Shown one piece after another: positions 11,082 through 54,245 of a DNA stretch of 64,000 bases (within the stretch, counting starts at the first letter, position 1; every line of letters begins with the position of its first letter). Source of the DNA: an archaeon (GTDB taxonomy: Archaea; Nanobdellota; Nanobdellia; SCGC-AAA011-G17; VGLX01); contig JBDRNX010000032.1 of assembly GCA_043810595.1 (NCBI GenBank), positions 38,219 through 102,218 of the forward strand, read 5' to 3'. The translations under genes and the position numbers were made by a program. The notes beneath the pieces were generated by a model. That model ran no database searches, was not told where the DNA came from, and was given only the letters and a program-made list of their open reading frames with translations.

Positions 11082-11621
11082 ATGGATAGTGATGTAGACC
11101 TTAACAACGTGCCTTATGAGGTGGGGTTAGGTGAGGCTCAGCCTGAAGCTCCAAGCTGTCCTTTCTGTTTGATTGCTGAGGGCAAGATAGAGGCTAAGAT
11201 AGTTTATAGCGATGATCGCTTTTTGGGGATTCTTGACATTAATCCAGCTAACCTGGGTCATATTCTGCTCTTTCCGAAGTTTCACTACGTTTCCCTTGCT
11301 GGCATGAGTGACGATTTGGCTTCCAGCATGTTTGTTACCGCTAAGAAGCTTTGTGCCGTTCTCGTTGAGACCTTGCATGCCAAGGGCTTTAACATCTTTC
11401 TTGCTGAGGGCCAGGTTGCAGGTCAGAACGTCCCCCACATTTTGCTTCATTTGATTCCGAGGTATGACCAGGATGGTTTGAGTTTTTTCTGGAAGGCGAA
11501 ATCTCTTTCTGAAGATGAAATGAAGAATGTTGCTGATTTGATAAAGTCTTTTTCTTTCAAGAAGGAGGAGCCTGCTGAGCAGTACTTTTTTGAGTTTGAC
11601 GAAGAGGAGAGAATCGCTTAG
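11082..11621 (+). CDS. HIT-family (histidine triad-like) hydrolase
   Basis: CPFCLIAEGKIEAKIVYSDDRFLGILDINPANLGHILLFPKFHY and VPHILLHLIPR. The triad is HxxxHx rather than the canonical HxHxH. Confidence 0.55.
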   Translation: MDSDVDLNNVPYEVGLGEAQPEAPSCPFCLIAEGKIEAKIVYSDDRFLGILDINPANLGHILLFPKFHYVSLAGMSDDLASSMFVTAKKLCAVLVETLHAKGFNIFLAEGQVAGQNVPHILLHLIPRYDQDGLSFFWKAKSLSEDEMKNVADLIKSFSFKKEEPAEQYFFEFDEEERIA

Positions 11622-12460
11622 GCAAGGCTGAGTATTATATTGCCGAAGATTAACGTCACTATTGTTGCTATTAGGAATGGTGGCACGAAAGGTATTCCCT
11701 CCTTTACGAGCACTTTTTTTATTTTTGCTTTTCTGAGTTCTTCTATCTGTTCTTTTTCAAGGCCAAGGTCTTTCGGCCCGCATATCACCCTTCCGTTCGC
11801 TTTCACTTCCTCTGCTACCCAGTCCCCTTCTGTCAGTTTGTTCACTTCGACGTGTTTGTACATGCATGCTTTGTCAACAGCTCTCATCAGGGTTATTAGG
11901 TAGACGTACATTATTAGGAATATTGTGGGTATGCCTAACATAAGTTTTGTTAGGTTGTCTTGTATAAGGAATACTGCTACGAGTACAGCTACTCCGATAA
12001 GTAGGGTTATCATCCTTAATTTTCTGTGTTTTATCATGGTTTTTTTTGCTTCTTCCTTGAATTCTTTCCAGTGTTTTATTGCCAGAACTACTCCCATGAA
12101 TATTCCGTATGCTGCTCCTATTATCAGTATGTTGATGAATAAGTCCAGCAGGAAGAAATTTTTTGTTCCCACAGTAGCGAATATTACTCCGAGTGCTGCT
12201 ATTAGCTTTGTGTCTCCTCCGCCCCACTGTTTTGTGTAGTACATGAGAACTCCTATGACAAACATAACCCCAAAGCCTACCGCGCCGTATAAGAAGTAGT
12301 TCCACTGGTTTGTTATCAGGGAATTTATGAGTCTGAGGCCGAAGCCGGATGCTATCATGCTGTAGCTTATCCAGTCGGGAACCTCTCTTTTTTTTATGTC
12401 TACGACGGTGGCTATGACTAGGCCTGTTATCCCTACCGCGATCAATAGAAGATCTATCAT
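11618..12460 (-). CDS. Type IV prepilin/preflagellin peptidase (A24 family, FlaK/PibD-like)
   Basis: Polytopic membrane protein carrying both catalytic Asp motifs, VVDIKKREVPDW and KQWGGGDTKLIAALG. Confidence 0.75.
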   Translation of the reverse strand: MIDLLLIAVGITGLVIATVVDIKKREVPDWISYSMIASGFGLRLINSLITNQWNYFLYGAVGFGVMFVIGVLMYYTKQWGGGDTKLIAALGVIFATVGTKNFFLLDLFINILIIGAAYGIFMGVVLAIKHWKEFKEEAKKTMIKHRKLRMITLLIGVAVLVAVFLIQDNLTKLMLGIPTIFLIMYVYLITLMRAVDKACMYKHVEVNKLTEGDWVAEEVKANGRVICGPKDLGLEKEQIEELRKAKIKKVLVKEGIPFVPPFLIATIVTLIFGNIILSLA

Positions 12461-16064: not shown

Positions 16065-16091
16065 TAAAGTTCCGAGGTGTAAAATTAGGTT

Positions 16092-17045
16092 ATGAAAAGA
16101 GGTGTTGTGATTTTTTTGGCGTTGCTGTTAATCGTTTCTGTATTTTTTATGGGTTGTCAGGAAAAGAATGAAAAAGTTAGGAAGCTGACCAACTACATAG
16201 GGGGCGATGACGGCTTGGGTATTAAATTTACTAAGAATGCGCCTCCTGACACAGTTTTGGATGAGAAGCAGGAGGATTTTGACGTAAGTCTTGATTTGGA
16301 GAATATGGGTGAATACACGATGGCACCTGGTGAAATTCTTGCTACGCTGAGTGGTATTGATCGCGAGGCTTTCAACCTTCCCTCCCTTAATGCCAAGAAC
16401 GCTTTCCAGTTGGAGAGAAGGATTAACGATAGGGGTGTTGTTAGGGAAGGGGGAAGGAATGACTTGCCTTTCGGGCTGGCTACTTTCACCCAGGATCTTG
16501 CTGCTGACTTTACCACAGATGTTATTGCTGACGTCTGTTACAAGTATCGTACCGTTGCTGTTGCGGCAGTTTGCCTTAAGCGTGATACCTTGCAGCTTAA
16601 GACAACCGATGCCTGTTTGATAGATAACGATAAGGTTGAGTTCGAGAATTCTGGAGCTCCCATCCAGGTTACGAATGTTGAAACCAGGAAGGCGGGTAGG
16701 AATAGCGTTAAGGTTACTTTCACTGTTGAAAACAAAGGTGATGGTGAGGTTTACCTGTCAGGAACCTTCACAGATTCTTGTTCCGGTCACGAGAAGGACG
16801 AGGCAAAGCTCCGTGTTATAATGGATTCTCCTTCCCCGAGGATTAACTTCAGGTGTGACTTGTTTAACGGAGCTGCCCAGGGTGATGTTAAGCTTTATGA
16901 TAAGACGAGGCAGGTTAGTTGTACTATAGACACGGGCAGTTTGCAGGAAACGGCTTACGAGGCTCTGGTGAACATACAGATTGATTATGTTTACAGGAAC
17001 GCTGTTGTTCAGGAGATAACAATTGAGAACACCAACGTTCTCTGA
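16092..17045 (+). CDS. Secreted lipoprotein-like hypothetical protein
   Basis: Signal peptide ending FFMGC. Confidence 0.4.
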   Translation: MKRGVVIFLALLLIVSVFFMGCQEKNEKVRKLTNYIGGDDGLGIKFTKNAPPDTVLDEKQEDFDVSLDLENMGEYTMAPGEILATLSGIDREAFNLPSLNAKNAFQLERRINDRGVVREGGRNDLPFGLATFTQDLAADFTTDVIADVCYKYRTVAVAAVCLKRDTLQLKTTDACLIDNDKVEFENSGAPIQVTNVETRKAGRNSVKVTFTVENKGDGEVYLSGTFTDSCSGHEKDEAKLRVIMDSPSPRINFRCDLFNGAAQGDVKLYDKTRQVSCTIDTGSLQETAYEALVNIQIDYVYRNAVVQEITIENTNVL

Positions 17046-29927: not shown

Positions 29928-30524
29928 TTGTATATGCAAAAAAAGGGTCAGCTTACTATATTTATTATTATAGGAATAGTTATTCTTTTTGTTTTGGCAG
30001 TTGTTTATTTCACTGTGTATGCTCCTAAGCGGCCTGAGATACCTCCTGAGCAGTTTTCTGATGTCCAGAAGTATGTTGATTCTTGTGTTGAGCAGACCTT
30101 GCGTGACGGCGTCACGAGGCTTGGCAGGGGTCCTAACCCTGACTATGAAGGAGCTCTTGCTGATTACGTAAAATCTTACCTTGTTTATTGTCCTAATTTT
30201 ACCGCTGACTTTCCTGAATTGGTTGTTAAGCCGAAAGATATAGTTTCTGTTAACACTACTCTCACTTCTGATAAGTCTATGGTCAGTGCTGTTGTCATCT
30301 ACCCCATAAGCATTTCTAAGGGGGCTTATACTAAGAACCTTGAGAGGTTTTATGCTGAGTACAGTCTTGTTGAACGTGGTTGTGCCTCTGTTCCTGTTAA
30401 CGTTAATTGCAGGTACACAGGGAGTAGTACTGTTACGGTCAAGGTTACTGGAATAACCTTCACCTTTAATCCAGGAGACTTTGTTGGCATAGGTGGTGTT
30501 TGCATAGCTTGTAAGATAGGATGA
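29928..30524 (+). CDS. Pilin-like protein with class III signal peptide
   Basis: MYMQKKGQLTIFIIIGIVILFVLAVVYF. A KKG|Q site is followed by a 22-aa hydrophobic stretch. First gene of a surface-protein operon. Confidence 0.45.
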   Translation: MYMQKKGQLTIFIIIGIVILFVLAVVYFTVYAPKRPEIPPEQFSDVQKYVDSCVEQTLRDGVTRLGRGPNPDYEGALADYVKSYLVYCPNFTADFPELVVKPKDIVSVNTTLTSDKSMVSAVVIYPISISKGAYTKNLERFYAEYSLVERGCASVPVNVNCRYTGSSTVTVKVTGITFTFNPGDFVGIGGVCIACKIG

Positions 30525-32197
30525 GAAAAAATTTATTTTTTGGAATCTGCATAGTCTCTTTATTTATTCTTATGTCTTTTTCCGTGGATTCTTTCTCCGC
30601 TATTAACTCGTGGGTTTGTAAGGAGATAAGCGCAGAGGGCAATTTTGATGACGAGAATTTTTTGCAGACCGTTATAATAAATTGCGATGTAGAGTCTTAT
30701 CAATTCACTACAGACGATTCTACTGTTTTTTTCGTAGCCAACTTCAATATAGATGGGGGGGATAACTTAACCTTTCAGATTGAGGGTCCCAGCGGTGTTG
30801 TTTACAGGGAAGAGGAAGGGGTAATTCCAGTTTCCATGCCAAACAGGTATGGTTTTTATTCTATGGATATAGCTGGCAAGGCCCCCGGAACATATCATGC
30901 AAAGCTTTTCAATAACGAAACAGTTGTTATCGATAAAATGTTTAGGGTAGCTGTTCCAGATTATACTTGCGAGACTAACGGATTTTTCTGCTGCCCCCTG
31001 GATAAGATGTGTATTAACAGGGTTGATTCAAGGTATGTTTGTAATTCTGGTGGTGTTTGTTGCAAGCCTCTTGGTTGTGTTACTCCTGTTTCTGGTGAGT
31101 TGACTGTTACCATAGTCCCTGATTGTTCTGCTGAAGGGCTTGAGGAGTGCGACAGGGTGATCGGCAACGTTTACGATTACAGTATTCACGGTCCTTTGGA
31201 AAATCCTCAGATGATAGAGCTTTTCTTCCGTGATATTGACGTTGATTGTTTCAATAAGGTTAACGTTGTTGTTGCTGTTTATGATGAGTTGGGTCTCAAC
31301 GAAGATAGTGCGTGGAATACTTATGAGAGTACTGTTACTCAGCTTTCTGGAAGTTATTACAGTGTTTCTGCTCAGATAGATTACATTGGTTACATTGCCG
31401 TTATTAAGAACAACAAGTGTGTTCCTACCGATTGTTTCATACCAGGTTTCAACACAGTTCCGTTTGATGGGTTGGTTCTTGCCGGCGATCCTATCCAGCT
31501 TGGTGTTTGTCAGGTGACTAAAGAGTGTGATGCTTCTGCAGGGGATATTTGTAACCGTAAATGCACTCAAAATCTCGATCCGGATTGTGGTACATTAATT
31601 TGTACCAGCCAGATGAATGATTGCTGCAACCCCGAGTATGATAAGGTTTGTGATTTGGATTGTGCAATTCGTATGGATCCAGACTGTGCTGATGAGACAT
31701 ATTTGGGTGGTTTGTGTTATCCAAGCAGTCCTGAGAGGCGCGGCTTTGCTTCATGTGATATTCACTGTACAGGGGCTGATCCTAATTGTGGGTCGCCAGG
31801 TTGTAATCCAGTTACTGATGACACCTGTGATCCTAACTGTCCTAAGCTCTCTAACAGAGTGGGTTATCTTGATATCGATTGTTGCAGCGAACATGGTATT
31901 CCTGTAACTGATGCAGGCGGTGATTGTTGTAACAGTGTTGAGAACGGCGTTTGTGACCCTGACTGTGTGCCTGGTTTGGATCGTGATTGTAATAAGCCAA
32001 TAACCTGCAATCCGAATGGTGTTAAGGAGTCGTTTGAGCAGTGTGACGGAACCGATTTCGGCATTTATGCAGGTTGTGCTTCATACATGGGCGAGGGTTG
32101 CGAGGGTAACTTGACGTGCACCTCAGCTTGTAAGATTGATAGTAGTGAATGTCAGTGCACTGATGATAATGGTGATGGTAATGGTAATGGATGGTGA
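30521..32197 (+). CDS. Secreted cysteine-rich protein with repeated Cx(n)DPDC/DPNC motifs
   Basis: N-terminal signal peptide. C-terminal half has about 40 Cys with recurring DPDC (CTQNLDPDCG, IRMDPDCAD, GADPNCGSPGC, CDPNCPK, CDPDCVPGLDRDC). Confidence 0.45.
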   Translation: MRKNLFFGICIVSLFILMSFSVDSFSAINSWVCKEISAEGNFDDENFLQTVIINCDVESYQFTTDDSTVFFVANFNIDGGDNLTFQIEGPSGVVYREEEGVIPVSMPNRYGFYSMDIAGKAPGTYHAKLFNNETVVIDKMFRVAVPDYTCETNGFFCCPLDKMCINRVDSRYVCNSGGVCCKPLGCVTPVSGELTVTIVPDCSAEGLEECDRVIGNVYDYSIHGPLENPQMIELFFRDIDVDCFNKVNVVVAVYDELGLNEDSAWNTYESTVTQLSGSYYSVSAQIDYIGYIAVIKNNKCVPTDCFIPGFNTVPFDGLVLAGDPIQLGVCQVTKECDASAGDICNRKCTQNLDPDCGTLICTSQMNDCCNPEYDKVCDLDCAIRMDPDCADETYLGGLCYPSSPERRGFASCDIHCTGADPNCGSPGCNPVTDDTCDPNCPKLSNRVGYLDIDCCSEHGIPVTDAGGDCCNSVENGVCDPDCVPGLDRDCNKPITCNPNGVKESFEQCDGTDFGIYAGCASYMGEGCEGNLTCTSACKIDSSECQCTDDNGDGNGNGW

Positions 32198-32231
32198 TAT
32201 TAAGTATGCAGATGAAGAGTGGTGATAAGGT

Positions 32232-35200: not shown

Positions 35201-35615
35201 GGACGATTGTGGAGGTAAGAAAAAAGGTGGTGGCCTTGGCCTGTTGTGGTGGATTATTATAATACTTCTAATCTTGATAGTGTGTGCTATTACCGCTTAC
35301 TTTTTGATAAAGAAGGATATAATCAAGTTGAAGAAGAAAAAGAAGGAAGAGCCCAAGGTTGTTTTGGGTAAGCCTATGATGAAGTTCGGTGCCGGTACCA
35401 TTCAGCCGATTACCACTAAGAAGCCGGTGAGGGATGTTTCAAAGCTTGTTTCTTACATTGGGGGTTCTATAAAGAAGGGTGAGTCAAGGTTGAAGTTGAG
35501 GGAGTCTGCTTTGAAGGCCGGCTGGGGTAACGAGGAGATTAACAAGGCTTTCGAAAGCATAGATAAGGGTAGGAAGCAGTCCAACAAGAAGTTCTTCAGC
35601 CTGTTCAAGAAATAA
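32232..35615 (+). CDS. Giant (1127 aa) cysteine-rich repeat surface protein with C-terminal TM anchor and basic cytoplasmic tail
   Basis: Signal peptide. Eight ~45-aa repeats of form C(G/D)N..(E/P)GEECDG.(N/D)L.G..C..FG...G(T)L.C...C.FD...C, reminiscent of Myxococcus-type Cys-rich repeats. TM helix LGLLWWIIIILLILIVCAITAYFLI near the C-terminus. Lys-rich tail. Confidence 0.6.
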   Translation: MKKSTKKVIYFISIAILLIFLVVLSSSCDDDKDDYCRAPKTIMGYCHTECGSPAECHLAYPGDIGTGCKFGQVCNDNCQCEWVDQDLDGFPSKNIGYMHYTKDCDDKDPTVFPGAPEICDNKDNDCNNKVDVDEGGVCDKHVYFCKSDNFNTPLESCTDGLWCSAETINTSAACKYTTTIGDIGTQPVKTFVCDNFFQDGDYGCYKFVNGAFSVVTSCDNDNELDETEECDGTNLDGKSCEYFGYLGGTLKCDRCTFDFDDCTGVVCDHDNFKDPGEECDGTDLNGKTCQYFGLPGNVLTCNDVCLFDKRGCTGGVAECGNNVVEAGETCDGFNLNGMTCSDFDSYTGGTLVCNAPGTVKECHFNTASCTPDNPGICGNNQINDGEECDGMNLDGKSCTDFDNFISGSLSCYPQGNALACLLDTSQCVAPQPVCGNAIVESGEECDGSNLNGQSCTSMGFAGGTLLCEVDCSYDYSSCESVSCDNDNAAEPGEACDGTDLDGRICQFFGFTGGTLECSNNCEFNFTKCNNYVCDNDGVAEPGEVCDGDDLRDWTCNDLDMFTGGLLQCTDLCMFDRSECSLICDNNNVAESGEECDGSDLRGKDCSNFGRFGGFLLCSLSCKYDLGSCGPSCLEDWDCTAWTNCSKMSDNTTRVCTDLTGCGTEYSKPNELKPCDPAVCVDDDNDGYCACFGDAVGCDCDDTLAAIHPDANELCNGEDDNCDATIDEGCPCEFNTTRICGVDEGLCREGIQRCLNGFWSFCSSNYIGPRPEVCDNGLDEDCDGYPDDGCICENNATQECGTDVGECEKGTQICFGGNWTACSGAKTETAEVCSGKKDEDCDTLIDCDDDSCLISSVCEDGGPGGPTPTCFDKTKNQGEEGVDCGGPCPACQELCGYGEITSECLCESVKRTSGYCCGGNRYQINSCTSGCTDSDGDTLCDEDEIRDGTDPNNPDTDGDGINDNEDSWPRCNQDGKCDSSKDYPEDADNCPDDCGGKKKGGGLGLLWWIIIILLILIVCAITAYFLIKKDIIKLKKKKKEEPKVVLGKPMMKFGAGTIQPITTKKPVRDVSKLVSYIGGSIKKGESRLKLRESALKAGWGNEEINKAFESIDKGRKQSNKKFFSLFKK
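32877..34125 (+). repeat. Eight tandem ~135-nt coding repeats (Cys-rich modules) inside the 1127-aa gene
   Basis: Recurrent GEECDG / GETCDG / GEACDG / GEVCDG cores at ~45-aa spacing. Confidence 0.6.
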
Positions 35616-37367: not shown

Positions 37368-38000
37368 ATGGAGATAAATCCTGAAATAGCTGAGCTTTGT
37401 GGCATCATTTTAGGAGATGGTCACTTACATAATACTGAGAACAGGATTACCATAACTGGTTCTGTAGATGACTTACATTACTACAAAGGATATGTCATAC
37501 CTTTATTTCAGAAAAACTTTGGAGAAACTCCAAAGTTAGTGCCAGTCAAAGATAAAAATGCGTGGAAATTAGTATTACAAAATAAGGTGGTTTTTATGTT
37601 TTTTATTAATGAACTGGGTTTAGTGAGAGGTAGGAAGACAAATATAAAAATTCCGACAAGGATATCCTGCTCTAGAGAACTGCTAATCCCTTTCATGAGA
37701 GGGTTATTTGATACGGATGGTTACCTAAAATTTGCTAAACAAAACAGAGATGTTAATTATTACCCTCGAATGAGGCTTACTTTGTATAAAAATGAACTTT
37801 CGCTTAGTCTGTCTAAAGTTTTTAAAAAGTTAAATTTTAACTTTAATAAATGTGTAGATAGAAGATATAACACAATATGCTATGAAATCTCTGGGTCTAT
37901 GATGTTAAATAGGTGGATGGAAATGATAGGTACTTCTAACCCTAAACACCTTGTCAAATACTTTCTTTGGAAAAGACAAGGTTACGTATCTATTATATAA
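37368..38000 (+). CDS. LAGLIDADG homing endonuclease, two-motif monomeric type, free-standing
   Basis: Motif 1 LCGIILGDGHL and motif 2 FMRGLFDTDGYL. Own AT-rich upstream region with TTTATAAAA. Confidence 0.7.
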   Translation: MEINPEIAELCGIILGDGHLHNTENRITITGSVDDLHYYKGYVIPLFQKNFGETPKLVPVKDKNAWKLVLQNKVVFMFFINELGLVRGRKTNIKIPTRISCSRELLIPFMRGLFDTDGYLKFAKQNRDVNYYPRMRLTLYKNELSLSLSKVFKKLNFNFNKCVDRRYNTICYEISGSMMLNRWMEMIGTSNPKHLVKYFLWKRQGYVSII

Positions 38001-43572: not shown

Positions 43573-43686
43573 GCCTCAGTAGCTCAGTCAGAAGAGCGAA
43601 AAATTCACTTGATGGATTTGCTCAGCTGCCTTGTAACTGAGCCGGAAAGCAGTAGGTCGGGGGTGCGAATCCCTCCTGAGGCTCCA
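43573..43686 (+). tRNA. Intron-containing tRNA with genomically encoded CCA. Anticodon tentatively UGU (Thr); one or two introns.
   Basis: Hand-folded. Acceptor GCCTCAG/CTGAGGC. D-arm GCTC-AGTCAGAA-GAGC. T-arm GGGGG-TGCGAAT-CCCTC. 3' TCCA. ~38 extra nt between the D-arm and the variable loop. A TTTTAAA box lies about 28 nt upstream. Confidence 0.55.
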
Positions 43687-43687
43687 T

Positions 43688-43759
43688 GGGCTCGTAGTCT
43701 AGTGGTATGACGTCGCCTTGACATGGCGGAGGTCGGGTGTTCGATCCACCCCGGGCCCA
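43688..43759 (+). tRNA. tRNA-Val(GAC)
   Basis: Hand-folded. Acceptor GGGCTCG/CGGGCCC. Anticodon arm TCGCC-TTGACAT-GGCGG. T-arm GGGTG-TTCGATC-CACCC. Only 1 nt separates it from the preceding tRNA. Confidence 0.75.
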
Positions 43760-43814
43760 TTTTTCTCCTTTAATAAAGAAAGGTTTTTATATACCAAAAT
43801 TGTTATTTTTTATC

Positions 43815-45809
43815 ATGCGAAAAAGAGGTCAGGTGACCGCCTTTATCATCCTCGGCGTCATCATAGTTGCTTTGGTTGCCATCGGTATCTACTATCGAGA
43901 TTCTTTAATGGAGTCTCTTTCTTCTATTGGGGTCGTTGGCGGTGTAAAGGTTCCCGAGGAATTCCAAGAGATTAATTTTTACGTTGAGGATTGTGTTAAT
44001 GATATTTCCGAGGATGGCATAAGATTGTTGGGCTTGCAGGCTGGCTATCTTTCTATTCCAGAAGATTCTATTCCTGCCGGCCCAGCAAATCTTTTTTCCA
44101 ACCGATTGGGTGTTTTTCCCAACGGACATATGGAGGTGCCTTACTGGTTTTACGTTACAGCCAATAACATACCTAGGGACGCAACTCCTTCCATAGGTTC
44201 TATGGAACAAGGCCTTGCTACTTACATAGATTCCAATTTAGATGATTGTATCGATAATTTCACCGAGTTTGACAGGTTCAAAATAGCTCCGAGGAATCAT
44301 AAGACTTCTGTGAAGATTAAGAAGGATGCTGTTGATGTCGAAGTTTCATTCCCTATAACTGCGGAGCTGGATGATAAGGTTTACAACTTCAAAGAGTTCA
44401 AGGTTGAGGTTCCTGCTGCTCTGGGCAAGCTTTACAGCATGGCTTTGCAGATACAAGATAGTGAGAACACAGATTATTTCCTTGAGGATAAGACTTATGA
44501 CGTTCTTGTTTTGTATGAGGAGATTCCCTTATCTGAGACTGACTTTAGTTGTTCCCCTAGGATTTGGTCTAAGACTAAGGTTACTGAGGATTTCAAGAGA
44601 TTTCTCTCCTATAACGTTCCTGCGATAAAGGTGAAGGGTGCTGATTATAACATGTTGCCGGGTCGTAAGTACTTTGAGTGGGGTGCTTTGGAAACTTCTT
44701 ATCCTGACACGAGTGTTAATTTCATGTATTCTAGCTCTTGGCCCATCTACCTTGATGTCGTTCCTGCTGAGGGCGATGTTCTTAAGGGCGATGAGTTCTT
44801 GAGGGAGAATGCAGGTGAGGCACTTTCCTACCTCTCGTCTTTTGTGTGCATTAACCAGTATCATTTTATTTACGACATCAAGCATCCTGTTCTGGTTGTT
44901 TTACACGATGACGAATCTTTCGGTGGCCGGGGTTTGGACTTCCAGTTTGCTACCATGGTTGTTATCGATAACAATCAGCCTAGGGAGAACACGGCTCAAG
45001 ACTTGGGAATACCGGATGACGTTACTACCAATGAGATTTGCAAGTATGCGAGTTCAAAAATCACGATTAATGTTTTGAGACCTTCCTTTGGTGCGTTTGT
45101 TCCTGTTCCTGATGCGGATGTTTCTTACAAGTGTATCACCTCCCTTTGTGACATCGGTAAGACAGGCTCAGACGGTTCCATCACTGCCAACTTCCCTGCT
45201 TGTATTAACGGTGCTGTCATCGCCAAGAAGGACGGCTTCCATCAGGGTAAGACAACTCTTTCGACTAACGAGCCTGCAAGCACGTCTGTTATTATCGAAC
45301 CTTATTATGATTTGAATGTTGATGTTAGGGTTTTGAGTCCCTCTCCGAGAATTCCTTTGGCTACCGAGAAGATTGTTTTTAACTTCGTCAACGAGGAGGC
45401 TGGCTACTCGACCTCTTTCATCTATCCTGATGATAAAAAACTTAAGCTTATTTCAGGAGACTATGAGGTTACCTCCTACGTGGTTGAGGAAAGTCCGTTT
45501 GAGATCACGATACAAGGTCAAGATGTGGAGCACTGCACCACGGTCCCTAAGGGTATTTTGGGGATATTTGGTGTTGAGGAAGAGAAGTGTTCAAGTGTTA
45601 ACATCCCACCTACCAAGCTGAAGACTCTTATTAAGGGCGGAGCTAACTTTAAGTTCACTGTTAACAGGAATGATTTGGCGTCAGCCACTAGGGTAGTGCT
45701 TTACACAGTTTCTGAAAAAACGCCTAGTACCTATGAAGAGCTTGCTGACGTTTATTCAAGTCTTCAAGAGCAAAAGTCATATTTCATTTATCCGAGGTTT
45801 GAAAGATGA
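43815..45809 (+). CDS. Large (664 aa) secreted protein with pilin-like class III signal peptide
   Basis: MRKRGQVTAFIILGVIIVALVAIGIYY (KRG|Q then hydrophobic stretch). The longer ORF start would overlap tRNA-Val, so the ATG at 43815 was taken. Confidence 0.45.
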   Translation: MRKRGQVTAFIILGVIIVALVAIGIYYRDSLMESLSSIGVVGGVKVPEEFQEINFYVEDCVNDISEDGIRLLGLQAGYLSIPEDSIPAGPANLFSNRLGVFPNGHMEVPYWFYVTANNIPRDATPSIGSMEQGLATYIDSNLDDCIDNFTEFDRFKIAPRNHKTSVKIKKDAVDVEVSFPITAELDDKVYNFKEFKVEVPAALGKLYSMALQIQDSENTDYFLEDKTYDVLVLYEEIPLSETDFSCSPRIWSKTKVTEDFKRFLSYNVPAIKVKGADYNMLPGRKYFEWGALETSYPDTSVNFMYSSSWPIYLDVVPAEGDVLKGDEFLRENAGEALSYLSSFVCINQYHFIYDIKHPVLVVLHDDESFGGRGLDFQFATMVVIDNNQPRENTAQDLGIPDDVTTNEICKYASSKITINVLRPSFGAFVPVPDADVSYKCITSLCDIGKTGSDGSITANFPACINGAVIAKKDGFHQGKTTLSTNEPASTSVIIEPYYDLNVDVRVLSPSPRIPLATEKIVFNFVNEEAGYSTSFIYPDDKKLKLISGDYEVTSYVVEESPFEITIQGQDVEHCTTVPKGILGIFGVEEEKCSSVNIPPTKLKTLIKGGANFKFTVNRNDLASATRVVLYTVSEKTPSTYEELADVYSSLQEQKSYFIYPRFER

Positions 45810-48800
45810 GAACAGAGTTGATTGCATTTTTCTGTATGGCTTTAGTAATTTGCATTCCCCTGACTTTGGCTGCTGATACTCAGGAGGTACTTAAAGGGGC
45901 TGAGCCTGAATTCAAGAGTATCGATGTTGATGAGTTTGAGGAGCGTGAGACAGGGGAGTCTATAGTTGTTGAGGTTAAGTCTTACGAGCCCCAAGTTTTG
46001 GTAGCTTCTGCCATAGAGCAGGATGATGTTCCTGTGTTTGTTTTCTTGACAGGTACCACCCTCGGCAGTTACAAAGGACCGGAGTTTGTCAGTGAGGGCA
46101 GGCTTACTGTTGTTAAGGAGGGCGACATATTCTATGGTGTTCCCCCTATCAAAAACGTTTACATAAGCGAGCGTGATTATGATAGCAAGTACGTTCGGTC
46201 TGTTACCTACAAAAAACCTAAGAACAGTTTGTATTCTCTTGACAACCTCGGTTACTTGATTGTTAATCTCAAGCAGATTCCCAAGGAAGCCGACGTTCCT
46301 AACATTATAGATGCTAACATGACTGTCAGGATTGAGTTTGATATGGAAAGGAGTTATGGTATCGGTAGGCAGACTTTGATATTGAGTGAGGAGGCTAACG
46401 AGAAGACTTTCCTCAACAAGGTTGACTTAAGGGATAACATGGTTTTCTCCGGTAATGCTTATGTTCGTGCTGTTAAGATTTCTGACGATTCTGTTGACAT
46501 TATGGTTTATGACACTGCGTTGAAAGGTCTTGGTAGCAGGACTAACCTTAAGGTGGGACAGATTTCCAGTGCTATAACTTTGCGTGGTACTCATTCCAAC
46601 CTTGTCCAGGATCAGTTCAGGTTGCAGGTTGATTCTATCGTTGATCCTCAGCGTGAGTACGCTGAGGTCGAGGTCAGCATTGACGGTTCGTTGCCTGAGA
46701 AGAAGATTCTTTACAAGGGCTCTACTTTGTATCCTGGCTCTAGTGTGACAGTTTCTGATGTTAGTAAGATTGCATCAGGTAAGGAGATTATAGAGTCTGT
46801 TAGGGTAGCAGCAACTTCAGGAACTTACATAGCAAGCCGTAATTACACCAGCAAGTATAACATCCTTAATGCCGAGATGAATAAGGAGGCTTATGAAAAT
46901 AAGATTTATAAGAATGGTGCTGATCTTCAGGAGGTTCTTAAGATTAGTAACTTCAAGTTTGATGATTTGAAGAATGCTTTTGGATTTGATAGCATAACGT
47001 TTGATCCGATAACAGTTAATGCTTTGACGGTCGATCAGGATTACAAGCCGACTACAGTTACTGGGAAGGTTAAGACTCTTGCTAGTGTTCTTTCTGACTT
47101 GAAGCTTTCCCCTGAGATAGTTTTTGATGAAGCGAACAAGAAGGTGATAATAAAGATTTTCAAAATCGCAGAGAGGGAGCTTGCTGATCCTTGCACGAGC
47201 CAGGATTTGGTTTACACCCAGACTGCTTATTATAATGAGGCTGCCAGGAAAACCTTAATGGGCTTTTTTGATAAGGAGGGCAAGCTGTCCAATCAGGAGA
47301 AGAAGCGTTTGCTTTGTTCCGCTATTGATGTTTTCAAGAGGGTTTCTGCTTCTTATGGCAATGAGATGGACGAGAATAATAAGGTTCGTTACGGTGCCGA
47401 AGCTGATTACATGATCGGCAAGGGTTATGATGAGCTTTCCAAATTGGACGACATAGTTAATGGTGAAGTTGCTTCGACAAATGCATTGAATTATTATAGG
47501 CGGGCTCAGTCTGCGGGTTTCATAACTTCTGATATTCAAACTAAGATAGAGGAGTTCAGCACCAATTTGGTAACTGGTGTTGAGGGTCACGACATAGTTG
47601 TTGATGATAACGGTCACGAGGTTATTATACACTTGTTGCAGGTTGTTGATAAGACAGGAGCCCAACTTGATGCTTCTGCCCGCATTTCAGTAAACAACAA
47701 GGCTGCTACTGTTTTCAGGACAGGTGAATCTTTGTTCCCCGGTGAGCCTAAGGATATGGACAGATGCAGGATTAAGGAGATTAAGAGTTCCAGCGTTATC
47801 GTTGAAAACTGTCCTAAGCATGATAAAGATGGGAACACATTGAAGGATACTGCCCTGCCTGATATCACTTTGAAGGAAAACGTTCTCACTACAATTGAGA
47901 ATTACAGGGTGATACTTCTGGGTACTGAGATTAACAAGCAAGCAACAGTTACAGTGTTGCCAGGTTCTGGTAAGTCTATGTTCTCTGAATCAAGTTTCAT
48001 GTTGCACATACCTGTTGAGAAGCGGGCTATCAAGTTGAATCCTGATAAGATTGACGATAAGATTAACAAGACTGAAGAAACTATTAAAAAACTGAATGAG
48101 ATTATAACAAATCTTGATAAGCTTATCAAGTCCTGGAAGGCTGTCTGCCTTGCCACTTTTGCTTTCCTTACCATAAAGAATTCTTTCGGCTTATTCGGCG
48201 GAGGTGCTGCTAGGGTCAGGGCTAGGGAGAGAGTTATGGTTGACAGTGGTTGGAGGAAGTATTGTGAGACGGATTCCGGTCCTGGCAAGACCTACAAGAG
48301 TTATGACGAGTGTATTTTTGAGCATGCTGATAAGATCAATCAGAACATCGATGCTGTTCAGAAGGCTCTTGAGTCTGCTGATAATAGTTACGCTAAAGGT
48401 TCTGATAATGCAGCAGGTGTTGACATAAAGGGGATTAAGGATTTCCAGAAGTCTAGCGGCGAGGAGCTTTATTCCGAAGAGAATTTCAAGAATCTTGTTT
48501 ACCTGAAGGAGTTGAATGATGCCTGTTCCAGCGGCGTGGGAAGTTTTGGTAACGACGCTAAGGGCAAGCCTTACCCGAACACGTGTGCCGATGTTTCTAA
48601 GAAGTACTCTGATGCCTTGTTTGAGATTCAGAGCGCTAATACCAACCTTGGTGGTGCTCTTACCGAGTTTAAGGATAAGAAGCTTGACAGCTTCGAAGCT
48701 TGGAAGAAGGAGCATAAGGAAGGTGCTCTTGCTGATTTCCTTAACGAGAGAACTTCTGAGGTTAACAAGTTGAAGTCAGAATCTCAATTCAAGACTTATG

Positions 48801-51586
48801 TTGGTCGGACTTATAACTCTTTCACTACACAGAACAAGGCGGTGCCTGCTGAAGTGATAAAAGCCAGTGATAACAATTACTATTGGGTTACACCTTACGG
48901 TACTGCTAAGGTTGTTCCTGAAGCTGATGGAAAAACGTACACTTACACTTACGACAACAATCAAATTAAGTTGAGCCCAACCCCGCAGACAGCTGATAAG
49001 ACCTTGAAGGTTTCTTCTGTTATTTGGGATGCGAGTAAGACTACCGGTACCGCTTACAATCCTGATGGCATTTCCTATAAGGTTGCTGCAGATTCCAAAG
49101 GTAGGCCCCAGATTCAGGATGGACCTTTCAAAGATTACGTGGCAACCACTTATAACGAGGCTGCTCTTGGTGACTATGCTGGTTTGAGGCAGACTTACAG
49201 TGCTGGCGCATCTTATGAGTGTTATGAAGATAACAGGCCGTACTGCATTCCATTGAGCAAGGGTAACTTTGTCAAGGTTTTGGAATTTTACAAGGATGGC
49301 AGTCCGAAGACCATGAACATTTGGAATGTCGGTCCTGACGGCAGGCTTTGCACCGAAGATGACGTTCCTGCTGCCGGTGATCCCAAGTACAGCACTTGTG
49401 CTCACACTTCTGCTCTGATGACGAATTCTGACTGCAGCAGAGTTCTTTCTGAGGTTCAGTCTAAGATTAACTCTGCTACTAGGTACTGTCAGAGTAAGAA
49501 TCCTTTGCGTTCTGAAGACGGTCACACTTTTAAGCACAGCATTTCATCAGCTGCTCAGGAGTCTTATTCAAAGGCTGGTCATTGTGAGGATGCTATGGAG
49601 ATTGAGGATTGTAAGTTGATGTTTGCTGTTTGCGACCCTGTGATGTGTCCTCCTTCGAGGTTTAACCTTGCTGGTAACTGGCAGGTGGATGATGTTACCA
49701 AGACTGGAATAATCGGTTCCATCGTGCTTGGTTTGCCTAACTTCCCGACAGATCCCATACCAATATGCCTTACCGGTATTTCTGCTGGTTTGAAGAACAT
49801 AAGGTCTGTCTTCGAGGCTTACAGGGACTGTTTGGTTACGATGAAGGTGGAGGGTAAGTCTGTTGGTATTTGTGATAAGATCAGGTCTGTTTACATATGT
49901 CAGATTTTGTGGCAGGAGGCAATTGCTATTTTCAAGGTCAAGGGTGGGTTGCTTGACGTTGTAGGCGGTATGTTTGGTAATGCTGCTGGCGGTGGTGAGT
50001 ATTTCAGCTTTAGCGATAACTTTGCTAACGTCGAGAAGTCTGTTAATTATTTCACTCAGAGTTATGCTAGCTCTGTTTTCGCTGCTCATAAGGGTAAGTC
50101 TCTTGATGAGGTTGGCACAGAGATTTGTAAGTCTGCTGTGTACGGTCAGTTCCCAGGTTTGGGTGAATACTTTGATCATCTTACTGAGCCGGAAAACCCT
50201 CCGCAGTTTACTGCCTTGTTTGAGGAGATGCCTTATTCCGAGACTGAGAAGAAGTCGCAGTATTCTGTTTACTATCACATTTATGCGGGGACTGATGTTG
50301 AGGTTCAGTATTCTGTCTACTTGAAGAGTCCGACTAATAGGAAGTATTACGTTACCGAGCAGTGTGAGCGTCGTAACAGGAAGATTGAGAAGGGAAGCTT
50401 TGCTGATTACAGCATTACTTGCGTTACAGATACGGGTTATACTCAGATTTGTGTTGAGATTAACGGCAAGGAGGATTGCGGCTTCGGTAAGGTTAGCACT
50501 GCTTTCAGCTTGAATTATTTGAACGATATGGTGGTTAGTGATGAGGCAAAGAGGCAGATTACCAAGGCTGAGGATTGCGTTCCGGAATCCCCGAGGACTA
50601 GCCCTTCTCTCGGCTCTGTTGCTCTTCCAGGGCAGGTTAGTTTGCTCAGGACAGGTATTGTTAGGGTTTGCAGCTTTGACAATCCGGGCAAGGGTGCTAA
50701 TTACAGGAACTGGCAGCAGGTAGGTACCTGCATAGACAAGGACGGTAAGAGTTGGGGTAGCTGTTGGATGGACATGTCTACCGTTGACATTACGTCTGTT
50801 AGTGAGCGTTCCGAACTTCAGAAGGAACTTGAGAGTAGGGGTATACAGCTTGATGCTACGAAGAAGGGAATTCCCGAATCTGCTTTGCTGAAGGCTGATG
50901 CCAGCAAGGAGAAGATTCAGCAGGCTTACGATTCGATGTTGCTGAAGACTTGGCCGGATTACTTGAAGTCTCTTGCCCTGTTGCAGGAGGTTGTTGACCT
51001 CTCAATAGATCCTAACTCAATTGCTGATGCTTTGTACAAGATAGGTGTTATCTACTATGAGCTTGCTTTGACCACTCCAACAGCTGCGGAGTTGAAAGAG
51101 GCTGCTCAGGTTGTGCCTCCTAGCACTTCCACTATTACGACAACAACTCCTGAGGTTAAGAAAGAGGCTGAGATTTGTTACGATAAGAAGGATAACGACG
51201 GTGACGGTTGGTATGATTGTGAAGACCAAGATTGTGACGGCAAATATGCCGTGGAGTGCACTGACGCTAGTGATTGTGTTAACGCTCCTGTATGTAATTA
51301 TGAGAGGCGTAGTGCTTGCGTATGTACTTCTGGTCTTTGTTGTGATTTGGAAAACTGTGATTTCTACTCTAGTATTAACGTTTGTGATATTCAGTCTGCG
51401 TATGAGTGCCGCATGAGACAGAGCGGTGATGAGATACACAGGACTCTTACTATGACGTATTGTACTGGTAAGAGCAGTCAGTGTGATGGCGATACAGTTG
51501 TGGGTGAGCCTGAATTGTTTAAGACCTGTGGCTTAAATGAGGAGTGTAGGAGAGGGGAACCGGAGTGTTACCCCCTTTCAAAGTGA
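45806..51586 (+). CDS. Giant (1926 aa) surface protein with N-terminal signal peptide, one internal hydrophobic segment and a C-terminal Cys-rich domain
   Basis: ATGA overlap with the upstream gene. Hydrophobic AVCLATFAFLTI near aa 770. C-terminal ~130 aa has about 24 Cys (CYDKKDNDGDGWYDCEDQDCDGKYAVECTDASDC...). Confidence 0.5.
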   Translation: MRTELIAFFCMALVICIPLTLAADTQEVLKGAEPEFKSIDVDEFEERETGESIVVEVKSYEPQVLVASAIEQDDVPVFVFLTGTTLGSYKGPEFVSEGRLTVVKEGDIFYGVPPIKNVYISERDYDSKYVRSVTYKKPKNSLYSLDNLGYLIVNLKQIPKEADVPNIIDANMTVRIEFDMERSYGIGRQTLILSEEANEKTFLNKVDLRDNMVFSGNAYVRAVKISDDSVDIMVYDTALKGLGSRTNLKVGQISSAITLRGTHSNLVQDQFRLQVDSIVDPQREYAEVEVSIDGSLPEKKILYKGSTLYPGSSVTVSDVSKIASGKEIIESVRVAATSGTYIASRNYTSKYNILNAEMNKEAYENKIYKNGADLQEVLKISNFKFDDLKNAFGFDSITFDPITVNALTVDQDYKPTTVTGKVKTLASVLSDLKLSPEIVFDEANKKVIIKIFKIAERELADPCTSQDLVYTQTAYYNEAARKTLMGFFDKEGKLSNQEKKRLLCSAIDVFKRVSASYGNEMDENNKVRYGAEADYMIGKGYDELSKLDDIVNGEVASTNALNYYRRAQSAGFITSDIQTKIEEFSTNLVTGVEGHDIVVDDNGHEVIIHLLQVVDKTGAQLDASARISVNNKAATVFRTGESLFPGEPKDMDRCRIKEIKSSSVIVENCPKHDKDGNTLKDTALPDITLKENVLTTIENYRVILLGTEINKQATVTVLPGSGKSMFSESSFMLHIPVEKRAIKLNPDKIDDKINKTEETIKKLNEIITNLDKLIKSWKAVCLATFAFLTIKNSFGLFGGGAARVRARERVMVDSGWRKYCETDSGPGKTYKSYDECIFEHADKINQNIDAVQKALESADNSYAKGSDNAAGVDIKGIKDFQKSSGEELYSEENFKNLVYLKELNDACSSGVGSFGNDAKGKPYPNTCADVSKKYSDALFEIQSANTNLGGALTEFKDKKLDSFEAWKKEHKEGALADFLNERTSEVNKLKSESQFKTYVGRTYNSFTTQNKAVPAEVIKASDNNYYWVTPYGTAKVVPEADGKTYTYTYDNNQIKLSPTPQTADKTLKVSSVIWDASKTTGTAYNPDGISYKVAADSKGRPQIQDGPFKDYVATTYNEAALGDYAGLRQTYSAGASYECYEDNRPYCIPLSKGNFVKVLEFYKDGSPKTMNIWNVGPDGRLCTEDDVPAAGDPKYSTCAHTSALMTNSDCSRVLSEVQSKINSATRYCQSKNPLRSEDGHTFKHSISSAAQESYSKAGHCEDAMEIEDCKLMFAVCDPVMCPPSRFNLAGNWQVDDVTKTGIIGSIVLGLPNFPTDPIPICLTGISAGLKNIRSVFEAYRDCLVTMKVEGKSVGICDKIRSVYICQILWQEAIAIFKVKGGLLDVVGGMFGNAAGGGEYFSFSDNFANVEKSVNYFTQSYASSVFAAHKGKSLDEVGTEICKSAVYGQFPGLGEYFDHLTEPENPPQFTALFEEMPYSETEKKSQYSVYYHIYAGTDVEVQYSVYLKSPTNRKYYVTEQCERRNRKIEKGSFADYSITCVTDTGYTQICVEINGKEDCGFGKVSTAFSLNYLNDMVVSDEAKRQITKAEDCVPESPRTSPSLGSVALPGQVSLLRTGIVRVCSFDNPGKGANYRNWQQVGTCIDKDGKSWGSCWMDMSTVDITSVSERSELQKELESRGIQLDATKKGIPESALLKADASKEKIQQAYDSMLLKTWPDYLKSLALLQEVVDLSIDPNSIADALYKIGVIYYELALTTPTAAELKEAAQVVPPSTSTITTTTPEVKKEAEICYDKKDNDGDGWYDCEDQDCDGKYAVECTDASDCVNAPVCNYERRSACVCTSGLCCDLENCDFYSSINVCDIQSAYECRMRQSGDEIHRTLTMTYCTGKSSQCDGDTVVGEPELFKTCGLNEECRRGEPECYPLSK

Positions 51587-51587
51587 T

Positions 51588-52364
51588 ATGAAAAAGCCTA
51601 AATTTGTAAATTTTTTGAAGAAGAAGTTTGTTAAGGTTTACGTAGCTGATTTGTTGTTCTTTTCTCTGCTTCTCTGGTTTTTGGTTTATGCTCGCAATCG
51701 CATCTTTTCTTACTTGGTTGTAATTCAGCAGTTTACCCCTCAGCTTAACGATATCTACTCTTCGTTGAACATGGAAGATCCTGCGAGCGTTGCTCAGCTT
51801 GATGCGCTTTTGAAGGTGATAGAGCCAATAGTTACTGAGGCTAATTTTTTCATTTACTTTGTTGTTCCTGTTATGGTTTTCTTGATCTGGGTTTTTTTCC
51901 AGGGTCTCAGTTGGGGTTTGTTGAAGGAGGATTCTTTTAAGAAATCGCTTTACATACATTTTTACGTTAAGTTTGCCTTGCTCAGCATCCCTTTTTTTGT
52001 GGTTCTGTTTTTCTTGTTGAGGGGTTTCTTGGAGCTTACCGAGACTGTTAACCTTACCAAGTCCGTTATAATCTGGATTGTCTTGTTTATAGTGTTTTAT
52101 TTCACGTTGATTTCTTATCTGGTTATGAAAAAGAAGAAGCTGCTGTTTGACATCTTTGAAGTGGGTATTAAGAGGGCCAAGGTTTTTTTCCCTGCCTTCC
52201 TCCTTTTTATTGTTCTCTTCCTTATAGTTTTCGTGCTGTTCTTCAACGCTTACATCTCTGCCCTTTCCCTTGTGATGCCTTCTGCTTCGTCGATTATCTT
52301 GTTGTTGTTTTTTGTATTGCTGTTTAGTTCTTCTAAATGTCTTCTAGAATTTCTTTCAAAGTAG
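51588..52364 (+). CDS. Polytopic membrane protein, last gene of the giant-protein operon
   Basis: Six to seven TM helices. Starts 1 nt after the stop of the 1926-aa gene. Confidence 0.4.
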   Translation: MKKPKFVNFLKKKFVKVYVADLLFFSLLLWFLVYARNRIFSYLVVIQQFTPQLNDIYSSLNMEDPASVAQLDALLKVIEPIVTEANFFIYFVVPVMVFLIWVFFQGLSWGLLKEDSFKKSLYIHFYVKFALLSIPFFVVLFFLLRGFLELTETVNLTKSVIIWIVLFIVFYFTLISYLVMKKKKLLFDIFEVGIKRAKVFFPAFLLFIVLFLIVFVLFFNAYISALSLVMPSASSIILLLFFVLLFSSSKCLLEFLSK

Positions 52365-52367
52365 AGA

Positions 52368-52451
52368 TGCGGGAGACAGGATTTGAACCTGTGCAGGCAC
52401 TAAGCCACACGGCCCTGAACCGTGTTCGTTTGGCCGCTCCGACACTCCCGC
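52368..52451 (-). tRNA. tRNA-Leu(CAG), type II with long variable arm
   Basis: Hand-folded. Acceptor GCGGGAG/CTCCCGC. Anticodon arm CACGG-TTCAGGG-CCGTG. Variable arm GGC-TTAGT-GCC. T-arm ACAGG-TTCAAAT-CCTGT. A TTTAAAA box lies about 30 nt upstream. Confidence 0.75.
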
Positions 52452-52559
52452 ATATGTAGTATTGAGAAAACTTGGTCTTTAAAACTTTTTGTAAAGTCAT
52501 GATAAAACTTATTTTGTAGAATAATAATACTTTTAAATTGGTTATTCGCTAAATATTTT

Positions 52560-52823: not shown

Positions 52824-52876
52824 TTTCTACGTGATTCGTGCAACTTGTGGTCTTATTAAAAGAATATGATAAAAAC

Positions 52877-52960
52877 TGCGGGAGACAGGATTTGAACCTG
52901 CGTAGGCACTAAGCCACACGGTCCTAAGCCGTGTCCGTTTGGCCGCTCCGGCACTCCCGC
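52877..52960 (-). tRNA. tRNA-Leu(UAG), type II
   Basis: Same scaffold as the CAG isoacceptor, with anticodon loop CTTAGGA. A TTTTAAAAA box lies about 30 nt upstream. Confidence 0.75.
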
Positions 52961-53010
52961 ATCAACTAAGAATTAGGTTTTTGTTGTTTTAAAAAGGTTT
53001 TGAAATAGAA

Positions 53011-53948: not shown

Positions 53949-54245
53949 ATGAAAGCTTGGTTTTTATTGCTCTGTTTTTTGGCTTTGTTTTTTGTAGGCT
54001 GTAGTCTGGATCAGCATCCTCAGCAGAGTAACTATGTTTTTGACAAGTCGAAGTTCTGTCCTGATTATGGTAACTGTCAGGATACCGGTGAGGATTCTAG
54101 GTTGTGTGAAAGTTCGGAAGATTGTACTGCCACTTGCGCTTATGGCTGTGTAAGTAAGAATTGGATGATAGGAAGGGGCGACTGCGAAGCGTTAGTGGGT
54201 TATACCTGTGAATGTGTTGATGGATTCTGTCAGGTTAAGAAATAG
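53949..54245 (+). CDS. Small secreted Cys-rich protein
   Basis: Signal peptide ending FFVGC. 12 Cys in 98 aa. Confidence 0.35.
   Translation: MKAWFLLLCFLALFFVGCSLDQHPQQSNYVFDKSKFCPDYGNCQDTGEDSRLCESSEDCTATCAYGCVSKNWMIGRGDCEALVGYTCECVDGFCQVKK

Follow-up and report, generated by a model that had tools for sequence, protein, structure and literature searches.

A conserved archaeal gene unit for a giant secreted protein and its partner with a prepilin-type leader, a candidate apparatus for attachment to other cells

The three-gene unit and its chromosomal setting

We analyzed a 64-kb stretch of archaeal DNA (the window, by which we mean the whole stretch) that contains a unit of three co-directional open reading frames (ORFs) at positions 43815-52364, here called g1, g2 and g3. 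The first encodes a 664-aa protein with a class III-type leader, the second a secreted giant of 1926 aa and the third a membrane protein. ORF calling placed all three where an earlier note, made from the letters of this DNA, had read them, and the 4-nt and 1-nt junctions that it gave stood as well: g1 and g2 overlap by 4 nt in an ATGA, and the g2/g3 junction reads TGA-t-ATG, with a 1-nt spacer. The third gene is polytopic, as the note had it, with about 6 hydrophobic segments, but its product measures 258 aa from the start at the 1-nt junction and not 275 aa; the 275-aa version of the ORF starts 50 nt inside g2. In the database, a protein identical to g1 is listed as 'MAG: hypothetical protein ABIH63_03535 [archaeon]', where MAG stands for metagenome-assembled genome. 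The features of the unit are listed below; AlphaFold2 confidence is given as the predicted local distance difference test (pLDDT), and the slash marks a putative peptidase site here and throughout.

43784..43793 (+): TATA-like box TTTTTATATA, centered about 26 nt before the g1 ATG (sequence reading)
43815..45809 (+): g1, 664 aa, class III-type leader (ORF)
43815..43895 (+): g1 leader MRKRG and hydrophobic segment Q6-Y27, putative peptidase site G5/Q6 (motif scan)
43956..44984 (+): g1 alpha/beta head, residues 48 to about 390, its first part common to 169-196-aa paralogues (AlphaFold2 secondary structure)
45030..45806 (+): g1 C-terminal beta-sandwich stalk (transthyretin/CnaB-like), residues about 406-664 (AlphaFold2)
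45806..51586 (+): g2, 1926-aa secreted giant without a membrane anchor (ORF and signal peptide)
45806..46795 (+): g2 signal peptide (residues 1-23) and conserved N-domain (to about residue 320-330) (BLASTP to distant homologues, invariant columns)
47183..47515 (+): g2 stretch resembling tetratricopeptide repeats (TPR-like), residues about 460-570 (g2 profile against BamD/YfiO in PDB, E 2e-5); the range is approximate, as the match was given in profile positions 449-556 and not in g2 residues
47903..48295 (+): g2 middle block, residues about 700-830, a long helix ending WKAVCLATFAFLTIKNSFGLFGGG (alignment; AlphaFold2 helix at pLDDT about 60-73)
49223..51085 (+): g2 Cys/Gly-rich core, residues 1140-1760 (motif CDPVMCPPSR, at least 15 invariant Cys, alignments)
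51167..51586 (+): g2 variable C-terminal module, an acidic 18-Cys knot; the range includes the stop
51588..52364 (+): g3, 258-aa membrane protein with about 6 transmembrane segments (hydrophobicity scan)

Next, we looked at how widely the unit occurs and how firmly its genes stay together. In a species scan with one genome per species, 243 genomes encoded a relative of g1, and the complete genomes that carry one include AR20 (CP010426) and CP066683. The 80 loci that we retrieved were all annotated as Woesearchaeota, Nanoarchaeota, Nanoarchaeia or 'archaeon'. The earlier note had proposed checking whether the leader gene and the giant gene co-occur, and they were coupled without exception: the next same-strand gene after g1 was a g2 homologue in 81/81 loci with more than 200 nt of downstream sequence, and the junction was a 4-nt ATGA overlap (-4) in 55/77 loci. 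The g1-g2 pair was also found in a Pacearchaeota MAG, whose g1 homologue aligned with an hhalign E value of 2.6e-107. Homologues of g3 lay downstream of g2 in 34 of the 50 loci that offered at least 1 kb of room, sometimes with one extra gene between.

The neighborhood of the pair is conserved too. The window is a stretch of DPANN housekeeping genes (RadA, aRF1, SRP54, FtsY, TruD, GINS and aIF2-alpha, as well as S3Ae, S8e, LSM, TFB, GAN/DHH and tRNase Z), and among 40 large loci the neighbors within 10 kb were S3Ae (24 loci), LSM (17), S8e (16), GAN (16) and RIO kinase (15). The same backbone (S3Ae, GAN, RIO, LSM, S8e and TFB) surrounds the pair in genomes that share 24-40% g1 identity. A tRNA gene lay within 1 kb upstream of g1 in 36/68 loci and downstream of the unit in 17/35. 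The GC content of the unit is slightly raised (0.43-0.45 versus about 0.41) and was rated ordinary; there was no att-like repeat of a tRNA end around the unit and no integrase in the window. Because the synteny is conserved, the GC content is ordinary and neither an att-like repeat nor an integrase was found, we read the unit as an ancestral, syntenic core locus of the Woesearchaeota and Pacearchaeota that was not inserted. The description of the unit as inserted next to a tRNA cluster was therefore dropped: the position is one of core synteny, with tRNA adjacency kept in about half of the loci.

The flanking tRNA genes themselves, two upstream and two for tRNA-Leu downstream, were recovered by tRNA scans as previously described.

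43573..43686 (+): tRNA-Arg(CCT), intron-containing, outside the operon and given for context only (Rfam RF00005, 38 bits; ARAGORN intron option)
43687..43760 (+): tRNA-Val(GAC), abutting tRNA-Arg (tRNA scans including ARAGORN)
52366..52452 (-): tRNA-Leu(CAG), convergent with g3 and 1 nt past the g3 stop (tRNA scan, ARAGORN)
52876..52961 (-): tRNA-Leu(TAG) (tRNA scan, RF00005)

The tRNA-Arg(CCT) and tRNA-Val(GAC) genes (43573-43760, +) have no spacer between them, which suggests a dicistronic tRNA transcript, and ARAGORN detects the former only with its intron option on. The tRNA-Leu(CAG) and tRNA-Leu(TAG) genes share 92% identity over 86 nt, at a distance of 509 nt from each other; the sole content of the spacer between them is an 87-aa ORF whose reality is doubtful. 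Since the TATA-like box sits about 26 nt before the g1 ATG, and by the spacing rule generally known for archaeal promoters, the sequence suggests that the g1 operon has a dedicated promoter and a leaderless transcript.

The leader, the modular giant and their families

The g1 protein starts with MRKRGQVTAFIILGVIIVALVAIGIYY, that is, five residues ending in KRG, 22 hydrophobic residues and then an Arg. The earlier note had seen in this the architecture of a class III signal, and both the motif scan and the near-invariant leader of the family bear it out. The N-region MRKRG is short and basic and ends in K or R followed by G or A; the hydrophobic stretch QVTAFIILGVIIVALVAIGIYY, about 20 residues as expected of class III signals, follows directly after the putative cleavage site (Kyte-Doolittle mean of 3.06 for the best 19-residue window and of 2.73 for the 20 residues from the cleavage site). 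A cognate aspartic peptidase of family A24 is encoded in the same window, and it carries the two Asp motifs previously noted, VVDIKKREVPD and GGGD.

11618..12460 (-): A24 prepilin/preflagellin peptidase (PF01478, E 3.2e-13), candidate processing enzyme for g1

We then examined the leader across 70 distinct homologue N-termini. Position -2 was K in 66/70 and position -1 was R or K in 70/70, and the last leader residue was G in 66/70 and A in the remaining 4/70. Position +3 was T in 53/70, position +5 was Phe in 43/70 and Tyr in 22/70 (F/Y in 65/70) and position +9 was G in 70/70, with a basic residue ending the hydrophobic stretch at +23. The +1 column of this logo was fixed by the regular expression used for selection, and the frequency of Gln at +1 was taken from 79 full-length homologues, about 75 of which have it. 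Because KRGQ, T+3 and G+9 are nearly invariant although the mean column identity of the family is only 38% (31-40% identity overall), these alignments support the view that the g1 N-terminus behaves as a class III (prepilin-type) signal, with predicted cleavage, and not as a generic anchor; as far as sequence comparison can tell, the constraint on the leader is far beyond the needs of a generic signal-anchor. RG/Q is the experimentally defined context in which the pilin EpdA is cleaved in Methanococcus, the EppA site being RGQI; the peptidase EppA requires Gln at +1 (PMC4187195), and the g1 family has this Gln.

The rest of g1 belongs to a family of about 90 full-length homologues, every one of them annotated as hypothetical. 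An AlphaFold2 model built on a 56-sequence alignment was confident (pLDDT 85.7) and consists of an N-terminal helix (residues 4-37), a low-confidence linker (34-43), a second helix (48-74) and then sheets. There was no match to g1 in Pfam, NCBIfam, PHROGs, PADLOC or PDB sequences, and a fold search with the model returned only single beta-sandwich domains, with no match to solved pilins reported. The g1 hidden Markov model (HMM; positions 1-73 and 131-200) matched a 196-aa protein at 29934-30524 of the window (E 8.6e-20; BLASTP E 7e-4) over the leader and two head segments, and the related locus L027 has a 169-aa g1 paralogue with the same leader. Since the g1 head also exists in the form of pilin-sized proteins, g1 looks like a pilin-type module that has been extended by a stalk.

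The 196-aa paralogue begins a second unit of the same design.

29934..32197 (+): 196-aa g1 paralogue (MQKKG/QLTIFIIIG...) overlapping a 558-aa secreted Cys-rich protein by 4 nt

The pattern had been described as recurring twice in the window, at 29928-35615 and at 14715-17045. The first recurrence is confirmed by homology (the HMM match above) and by the 4-nt overlap with the Cys-rich gene; the second found no homology support, and the protein at 14715-16064 was rejected as a g1 homologue (hhalign probability 1.9%). Directly after the 196-aa/558-aa pair lies a 1127-aa Cys-rich protein (32232-35615, +) that has a signal peptide and, at its C-terminus, a transmembrane segment with a Lys-rich tail; it contains MopE-type metal-binding repeats (PF11617, E 2.5e-14), with many 'GEECDG.DLNG..C' units. 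At 14715-17045 (+), the 449-aa protein begins with MFSPMFKKRGKTATPVATLIFLIALFIIF and contains an insert rich in Cys and Asp, and the 317-aa second protein starts MKRGVVIFLALLLIVSVFFMGC, which can be read as a lipobox or as a class III signal; neither of the two shows homology to g1.

Several related loci depart from the usual arrangement. In one Woesearchaeota lineage (L004, 15962-18122; also L038), a cluster of small genes stands after g1 and g2 in place of g3. Those of 140, 168 and about 263 aa have KRG-type leaders (in L004, MKKRGQTEIY..., MINKRGEFGLV... and MLNKRGMVEIF...); with a 154-aa gene of the same cluster that has an N-terminal transmembrane segment, they look like a minor-pilin set. 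In L053 (1126-5140), g1 and g2 are fused in one ORF, which could be an assembly error, a pseudogene or a real fusion, and in L072 (459-2491), g1 is split into two ORFs, which could likewise be an assembly error, a pseudogene or real.

The g2 protein has an N-terminal Sec-type signal peptide, and a hydrophobicity scan found no transmembrane-grade segment in it or in 7 homologues; the internal hydrophobic segment reported for it earlier falls below that grade. The C-terminal Cys knot and the signal peptide of that description remain, with 18 Cys in the last 146 residues and not about 24; the whole protein has 52. Homologues are between 1,460 and over 3,300 aa long, and relatives at 22-35% identity share three conserved blocks, namely, the N-domain, the middle block and the Cys/Gly-rich core; AlphaFold2 confidence was below 50 over the most conserved part of this core. 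A profile of the core retrieved 1075 cluster representatives (50% identity) from among 1.84 billion proteins, and because 944 of these matched at an E of ≤1e-30, the family is large and sharply bounded. A further word-indexed search, run with the g2 alignment, brought no additional relatives. Apart from the TPR-like stretch, searches of Pfam, NCBIfam and PDB linked g2 to no solved structure or curated family, and there was no significant match in PHROGs or PADLOC. The knot gave weak matches only, to a teneurin EGF region (E 0.04) and to the acidic double-disulfide repeat NF033662 (E 2e-4).

The C-termini of the homologues differ from one another in kind. Among 42 g2 homologue tails, we found SLT in 12, GDSL in 5, 3D in 3 and M23 in 2, and Amidase_3, DPBB_1, Peptidase_M15_4, NlpC/P60, SH3_3 and Metallophos once each. 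Judged by these domain matches, the variable tails are mostly bacterial peptidoglycan-hydrolase modules, and g2 is best described as a conserved scaffold with a swappable C-terminus.

For g3, a homologue was found in L002 (E 2e-12). There was no Pfam or PDB match and no invariant polar residue, and nothing significant was found in NCBIfam, PHROGs or PADLOC. Because it belongs to no known family and has no invariant polar residues, g3 is probably structural rather than catalytic.

We also compared the observed number of N-glycosylation sequons (N-X-S/T) with that in shuffled sequences. Sequons were depleted 4- to 4.5-fold in both the g1 family (111 observed, 440 expected) and the g2 family (249 observed, 1124 expected), versus 1.3-fold in other long ORFs of the same loci (478 observed, 630 expected). 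The g2 protein of the window has 3 sequons where 13.8 were expected, and 0/1000 shuffles reached so few; three other exported proteins of the window showed no depletion. This avoidance is consistent with proteins that are exposed to the glycosylation machinery yet need bare surfaces. The 449-aa and 317-aa proteins of 14715-17045 have zero sequons, versus 3.3 and 2.3 expected.

Three further genes of the window deserve mention. A 568-aa protein (21317-23023, +) has bacterial sigma-70 regions 2, 3 and 4 (PF04542, PF04539 and PF04545); sigma-70 genes are prevalent in Woesearchaeota, without an anti-sigma factor or a known role (Castelle et al. 2021, PMC8204110). A 98-aa Cys-rich protein (53949-54245, +) starts MKAWFLLLCFLALFFVGCS, a lipobox-like sequence that gives this archaeon a second candidate lipoprotein signal. 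A free-standing LAGLIDADG-like ORF (37368-38000, +; PF14528, E 4e-4) lies between a carotenoid-synthesis-like gene and the S15/GAN/S3Ae block, and since L002 has a LAGLIDADG_3 ORF at the same position, it appears to be a conserved gene and not the product of recent homing.

Proposed function of the unit and alternatives

We consider it about an even chance (probability of roughly 0.5) that g1, g2 and g3 form a surface complex in which the pilin-like g1 anchors or presents the g2 scaffold, g3 is a membrane partner and the whole attaches the cell to a partner; the unit is probably a surface device for holding partner bacteria. In this complex, g1 would enter the membrane through its class III signal, and the A24 peptidase would cut it after Gly5 (KRG/Q). 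The helix at the mature N-terminus would then either retain g1 in the membrane or be lifted into a short fiber by a type IV filament (TFF) machine, and the pilin-like head and beta-sandwich stalk would project outward. The g2 protein would be exported by Sec and kept at the surface by g1; we propose that g1 holds it because g2 has no anchor of its own and is translationally coupled to g1. Its scaffold would present the swappable C-terminal working end, which in many relatives is predicted to be a peptidoglycan hydrolase and in this genome may be a disulfide- or metal-stabilized Cys knot, probably a binding module. The membrane partner g3 would act as a dock or an assembly factor. So assembled, the complex would fasten the small archaeal cell to its partner, which is probably bacterial, and in relatives would also open the partner's wall locally. 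A host-contact role, which the earlier note had put forward together with the leader, the peptidase and the coupling of the genes, is strengthened because peptidoglycan-hydrolase modules sit on the C-termini of g2 homologues. The structural reading in that note was largely correct and its functional idea is plausible, with entry of g1 into a pilus putative; the insertion was lost. What the sequences show directly is the structure of the genes, the conserved leader, the strict coupling of g1 and g2, the syntenic core position, the domains of the homologues and the export of the proteins; cleavage, binding of g1 to g2, a place of g1 in a pilus and the target cell are inferred.

Several observations weigh against the proposed complex. 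The low-confidence linker in the AlphaFold2 model separates the N-terminal helix of g1 from its head, which is thus not built on one continuous pilin helix, and g1 exceeds an ordinary pilin three- to fourfold in size. At an E of ≤5, neither g1 nor its first 200 residues matched a curated pilin family in Pfam or NCBIfam, and the short paralogues and the small genes with KRG leaders gave no match either. The residue at +5 is Phe/Tyr and not acidic, as it is in EppA substrates. There was no TFF ATPase or platform gene within the 64-kb window, and in 84 related loci the sequence up to 10 kb from g1 contained no Walker A motif of the T2SSE type. The g2 protein of the window itself has no hydrolase domain (SLT, PF01464, gave no match at an E of ≤0.1), and the evidence that g1 binds g2 is their genomic coupling. 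In favor of the complex, TFF systems (system 1, Aap-like and 4A) have been placed in DPANN, and class III signals are widespread on nonpilin surface proteins, which are encoded at a distance from the assembly genes (preprint 10.64898/2026.04.22.720090).

The same observations could be accommodated if g1 had an ordinary, uncleaved Sec signal-anchor in which KRGQ is kept for topology or packing, so that a surface complex might exist with no link to pilins. The lack of TFF assembly genes nearby, the large size of g1, the nonacidic +5, the failure to match a pilin family and the flexible linker after the helix all suit such an anchor. We nevertheless regard it as unlikely: generic anchors do not keep G, Q, T+3 and G+9 near-invariant at 31-40% identity, the same leader is found on the pilin-sized paralogues and on small neighboring genes, and the A24 peptidase of the window needs substrates.

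An S-layer-like envelope, with g2 as the outer canopy, g1 as its anchored stalk (compare SlaA/SlaB of Sulfolobales) and g3 as an accessory, would give the unit a structural role. The unit is universal, apparently single copy and housed among housekeeping genes beside those for ribosomal proteins, and its two-component design of an anchor and a giant secreted protein under tight translational coupling resembles such an envelope. Archaeal S-layer proteins, however, are typically heavily glycosylated, and the 4- to 4.5-fold depletion of sequons argues against the role of an S-layer glycoprotein. In addition, the length of g2 varies more than 2-fold and its C-termini are enzymatic and swappable, which is unusual for a lattice protein; the g1 anchor is an N-terminal class III-type helix and not a C-terminal transmembrane segment as in SlaB; and the match to SlaB is a generic beta-sandwich similarity that is common to dozens of adhesins. 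Taken together, these points make an S-layer quite unlikely.

A bolder extension of the surface complex, and a long shot, is that the unit is the core of a lineage-defining and hitherto unrecognized organelle for host penetration. Here, too, g1 would present g2 and the enzymes would cut the wall, and the g2 core would insert into the partner's membrane, with the fusion-peptide-like segments KTGIIGSIVLGLPNF and FAFLTIKNSFGLFGGG of its Cys/Gly-rich part entering that membrane. Insertion would open the cytoplasmic bridge by which DPANN cells are believed to obtain their nutrients, and the extreme avoidance of sequons would keep the contact surfaces bare.

Export driven by a pseudopilus, in which g1 would be the tip of a piston like that of type II secretion systems and g2 would be released as a free lytic or binding factor, struck us as highly improbable. 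It would explain why g2 has no anchor, why it is coupled to a protein with a class III leader and why hydrolase domains appear as cargo in relatives, but in such archaea there is no outer membrane that would have to be crossed, a Sec signal is already present on g2, a conserved scaffold of 1,700 aa makes little sense in an enzyme that diffuses freely, and no ATPase or platform gene lies nearby. A phage tape-measure-like origin of g2, prompted by its hydrophobic segments and the lysin domains of relatives, was rejected in view of the absence of PHROG hits, the Sec signal and the universal position in the chromosomal core. Finally, the tRNA genes on both sides and the slightly higher GC content might have suggested that the unit is a genomic island, or a mobile element, that entered at a tRNA gene and brought strain-specific adhesins with it; this idea is effectively refuted by the same gene pair in the same backbone at only 24-40% g1 identity, by the conservation of the tRNA adjacency itself and by the absence of an integrase, of a direct repeat of the tRNA end and of PHROG hits.

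Few uncultured archaea are as widespread as the Woesearchaeota and Pacearchaeota, and for these the unit offers a concrete candidate for an attachment and wall-breaching apparatus. Scattered genes for a 'large lytic transglycosylase' become a single scaffold family with a modular working end. This family comprises at least 1075 clusters, occupies a fixed core locus in at least 243 species-representative genomes and is without exception translationally coupled to a partner protein whose leader is of the prepilin type. The C-terminal module may predict the type of partner, a peptidoglycan hydrolase pointing to a bacterial one. Moreover, g1 provides a defined candidate substrate on which the specificity of prepilin peptidases in DPANN could be tested, and the family-specific avoidance of sequons is a strong and testable property.

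Relation to known systems

A large lytic-transglycosylase protein of AR20 was reportedly noted in 2015, and the AR20 copy is among our loci (L016). Giant SLT-domain proteins of Woesearchaeota and Pacearchaeota were suggested as possible binders or degraders of cell walls in Castelle et al. 2021 (fam00969; PMC8204110), in PMC9723730 (GH23 proteins) and in PMC11537232; the binding of bacterial walls proposed in the first two of these papers is in line with the attachment role favored here. The g2 protein shares their lineage, size and extracellular location and is homologous along most of its length to the SLT-bearing proteins P0101 and P0102 (E = 0 to 1e-100 against members). It differs in that the g2 of the window has no SLT: the literature defines the group by SLT, whereas the conserved element is the scaffold, and SLT is one of at least 10 alternative C-terminal modules, present in the 12/42 tails given above. 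The SLT-independent scaffold, the modular C-terminus, the partner with a class III leader, g3, the core locus and the avoidance of sequons are not described in any of the three papers.

The closest likeness to the g1 leader is that of the Epd pilins of M. maripaludis, which are processed by EppA and belong to TFF 'system 1': a basic leader ending in RG, Gln at +1 and about 20 hydrophobic residues. System 1 has been reported in DPANN (preprint 10.64898/2026.04.22.720090). Unlike these pilins, g1 has Phe/Tyr and not an acidic residue at +5, is 664 aa long, lies outside a pilus locus and has no Pfam pilin match.

Pilins that present a partner include CofB-CofJ and TcpB-TcpF of enteric bacteria, PilB/PilC of S. 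sanguinis and the minor pilins that act with PilY1. As is generally known of such modular minor pilins, a pilin-type N-terminus is combined with beta-sandwich modules, and the gene stands beside that for a large Sec-exported protein that needs the pilin for display, which is the arrangement seen here. There is, however, no sequence relationship or detected fold relationship between them and g1, the organisms here are archaea, the partner is two to three times larger, and the filament role of g1 is putative.

The class III substrate-binding proteins of the Sulfolobus bindosome are also large extracellular proteins that use a prepilin-type signal and helix as an anchor and whose genes lie away from the ATPase; in contrast, g1 has no solute-binding domain and is coupled to a giant secreted protein, not to an ABC transporter. 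Compared with SlaA/SlaB, the anchor of g1 is at the opposite end and of the class III type, the sequons are depleted, and the C-terminal modules of the giant partner are enzymatic and variable.

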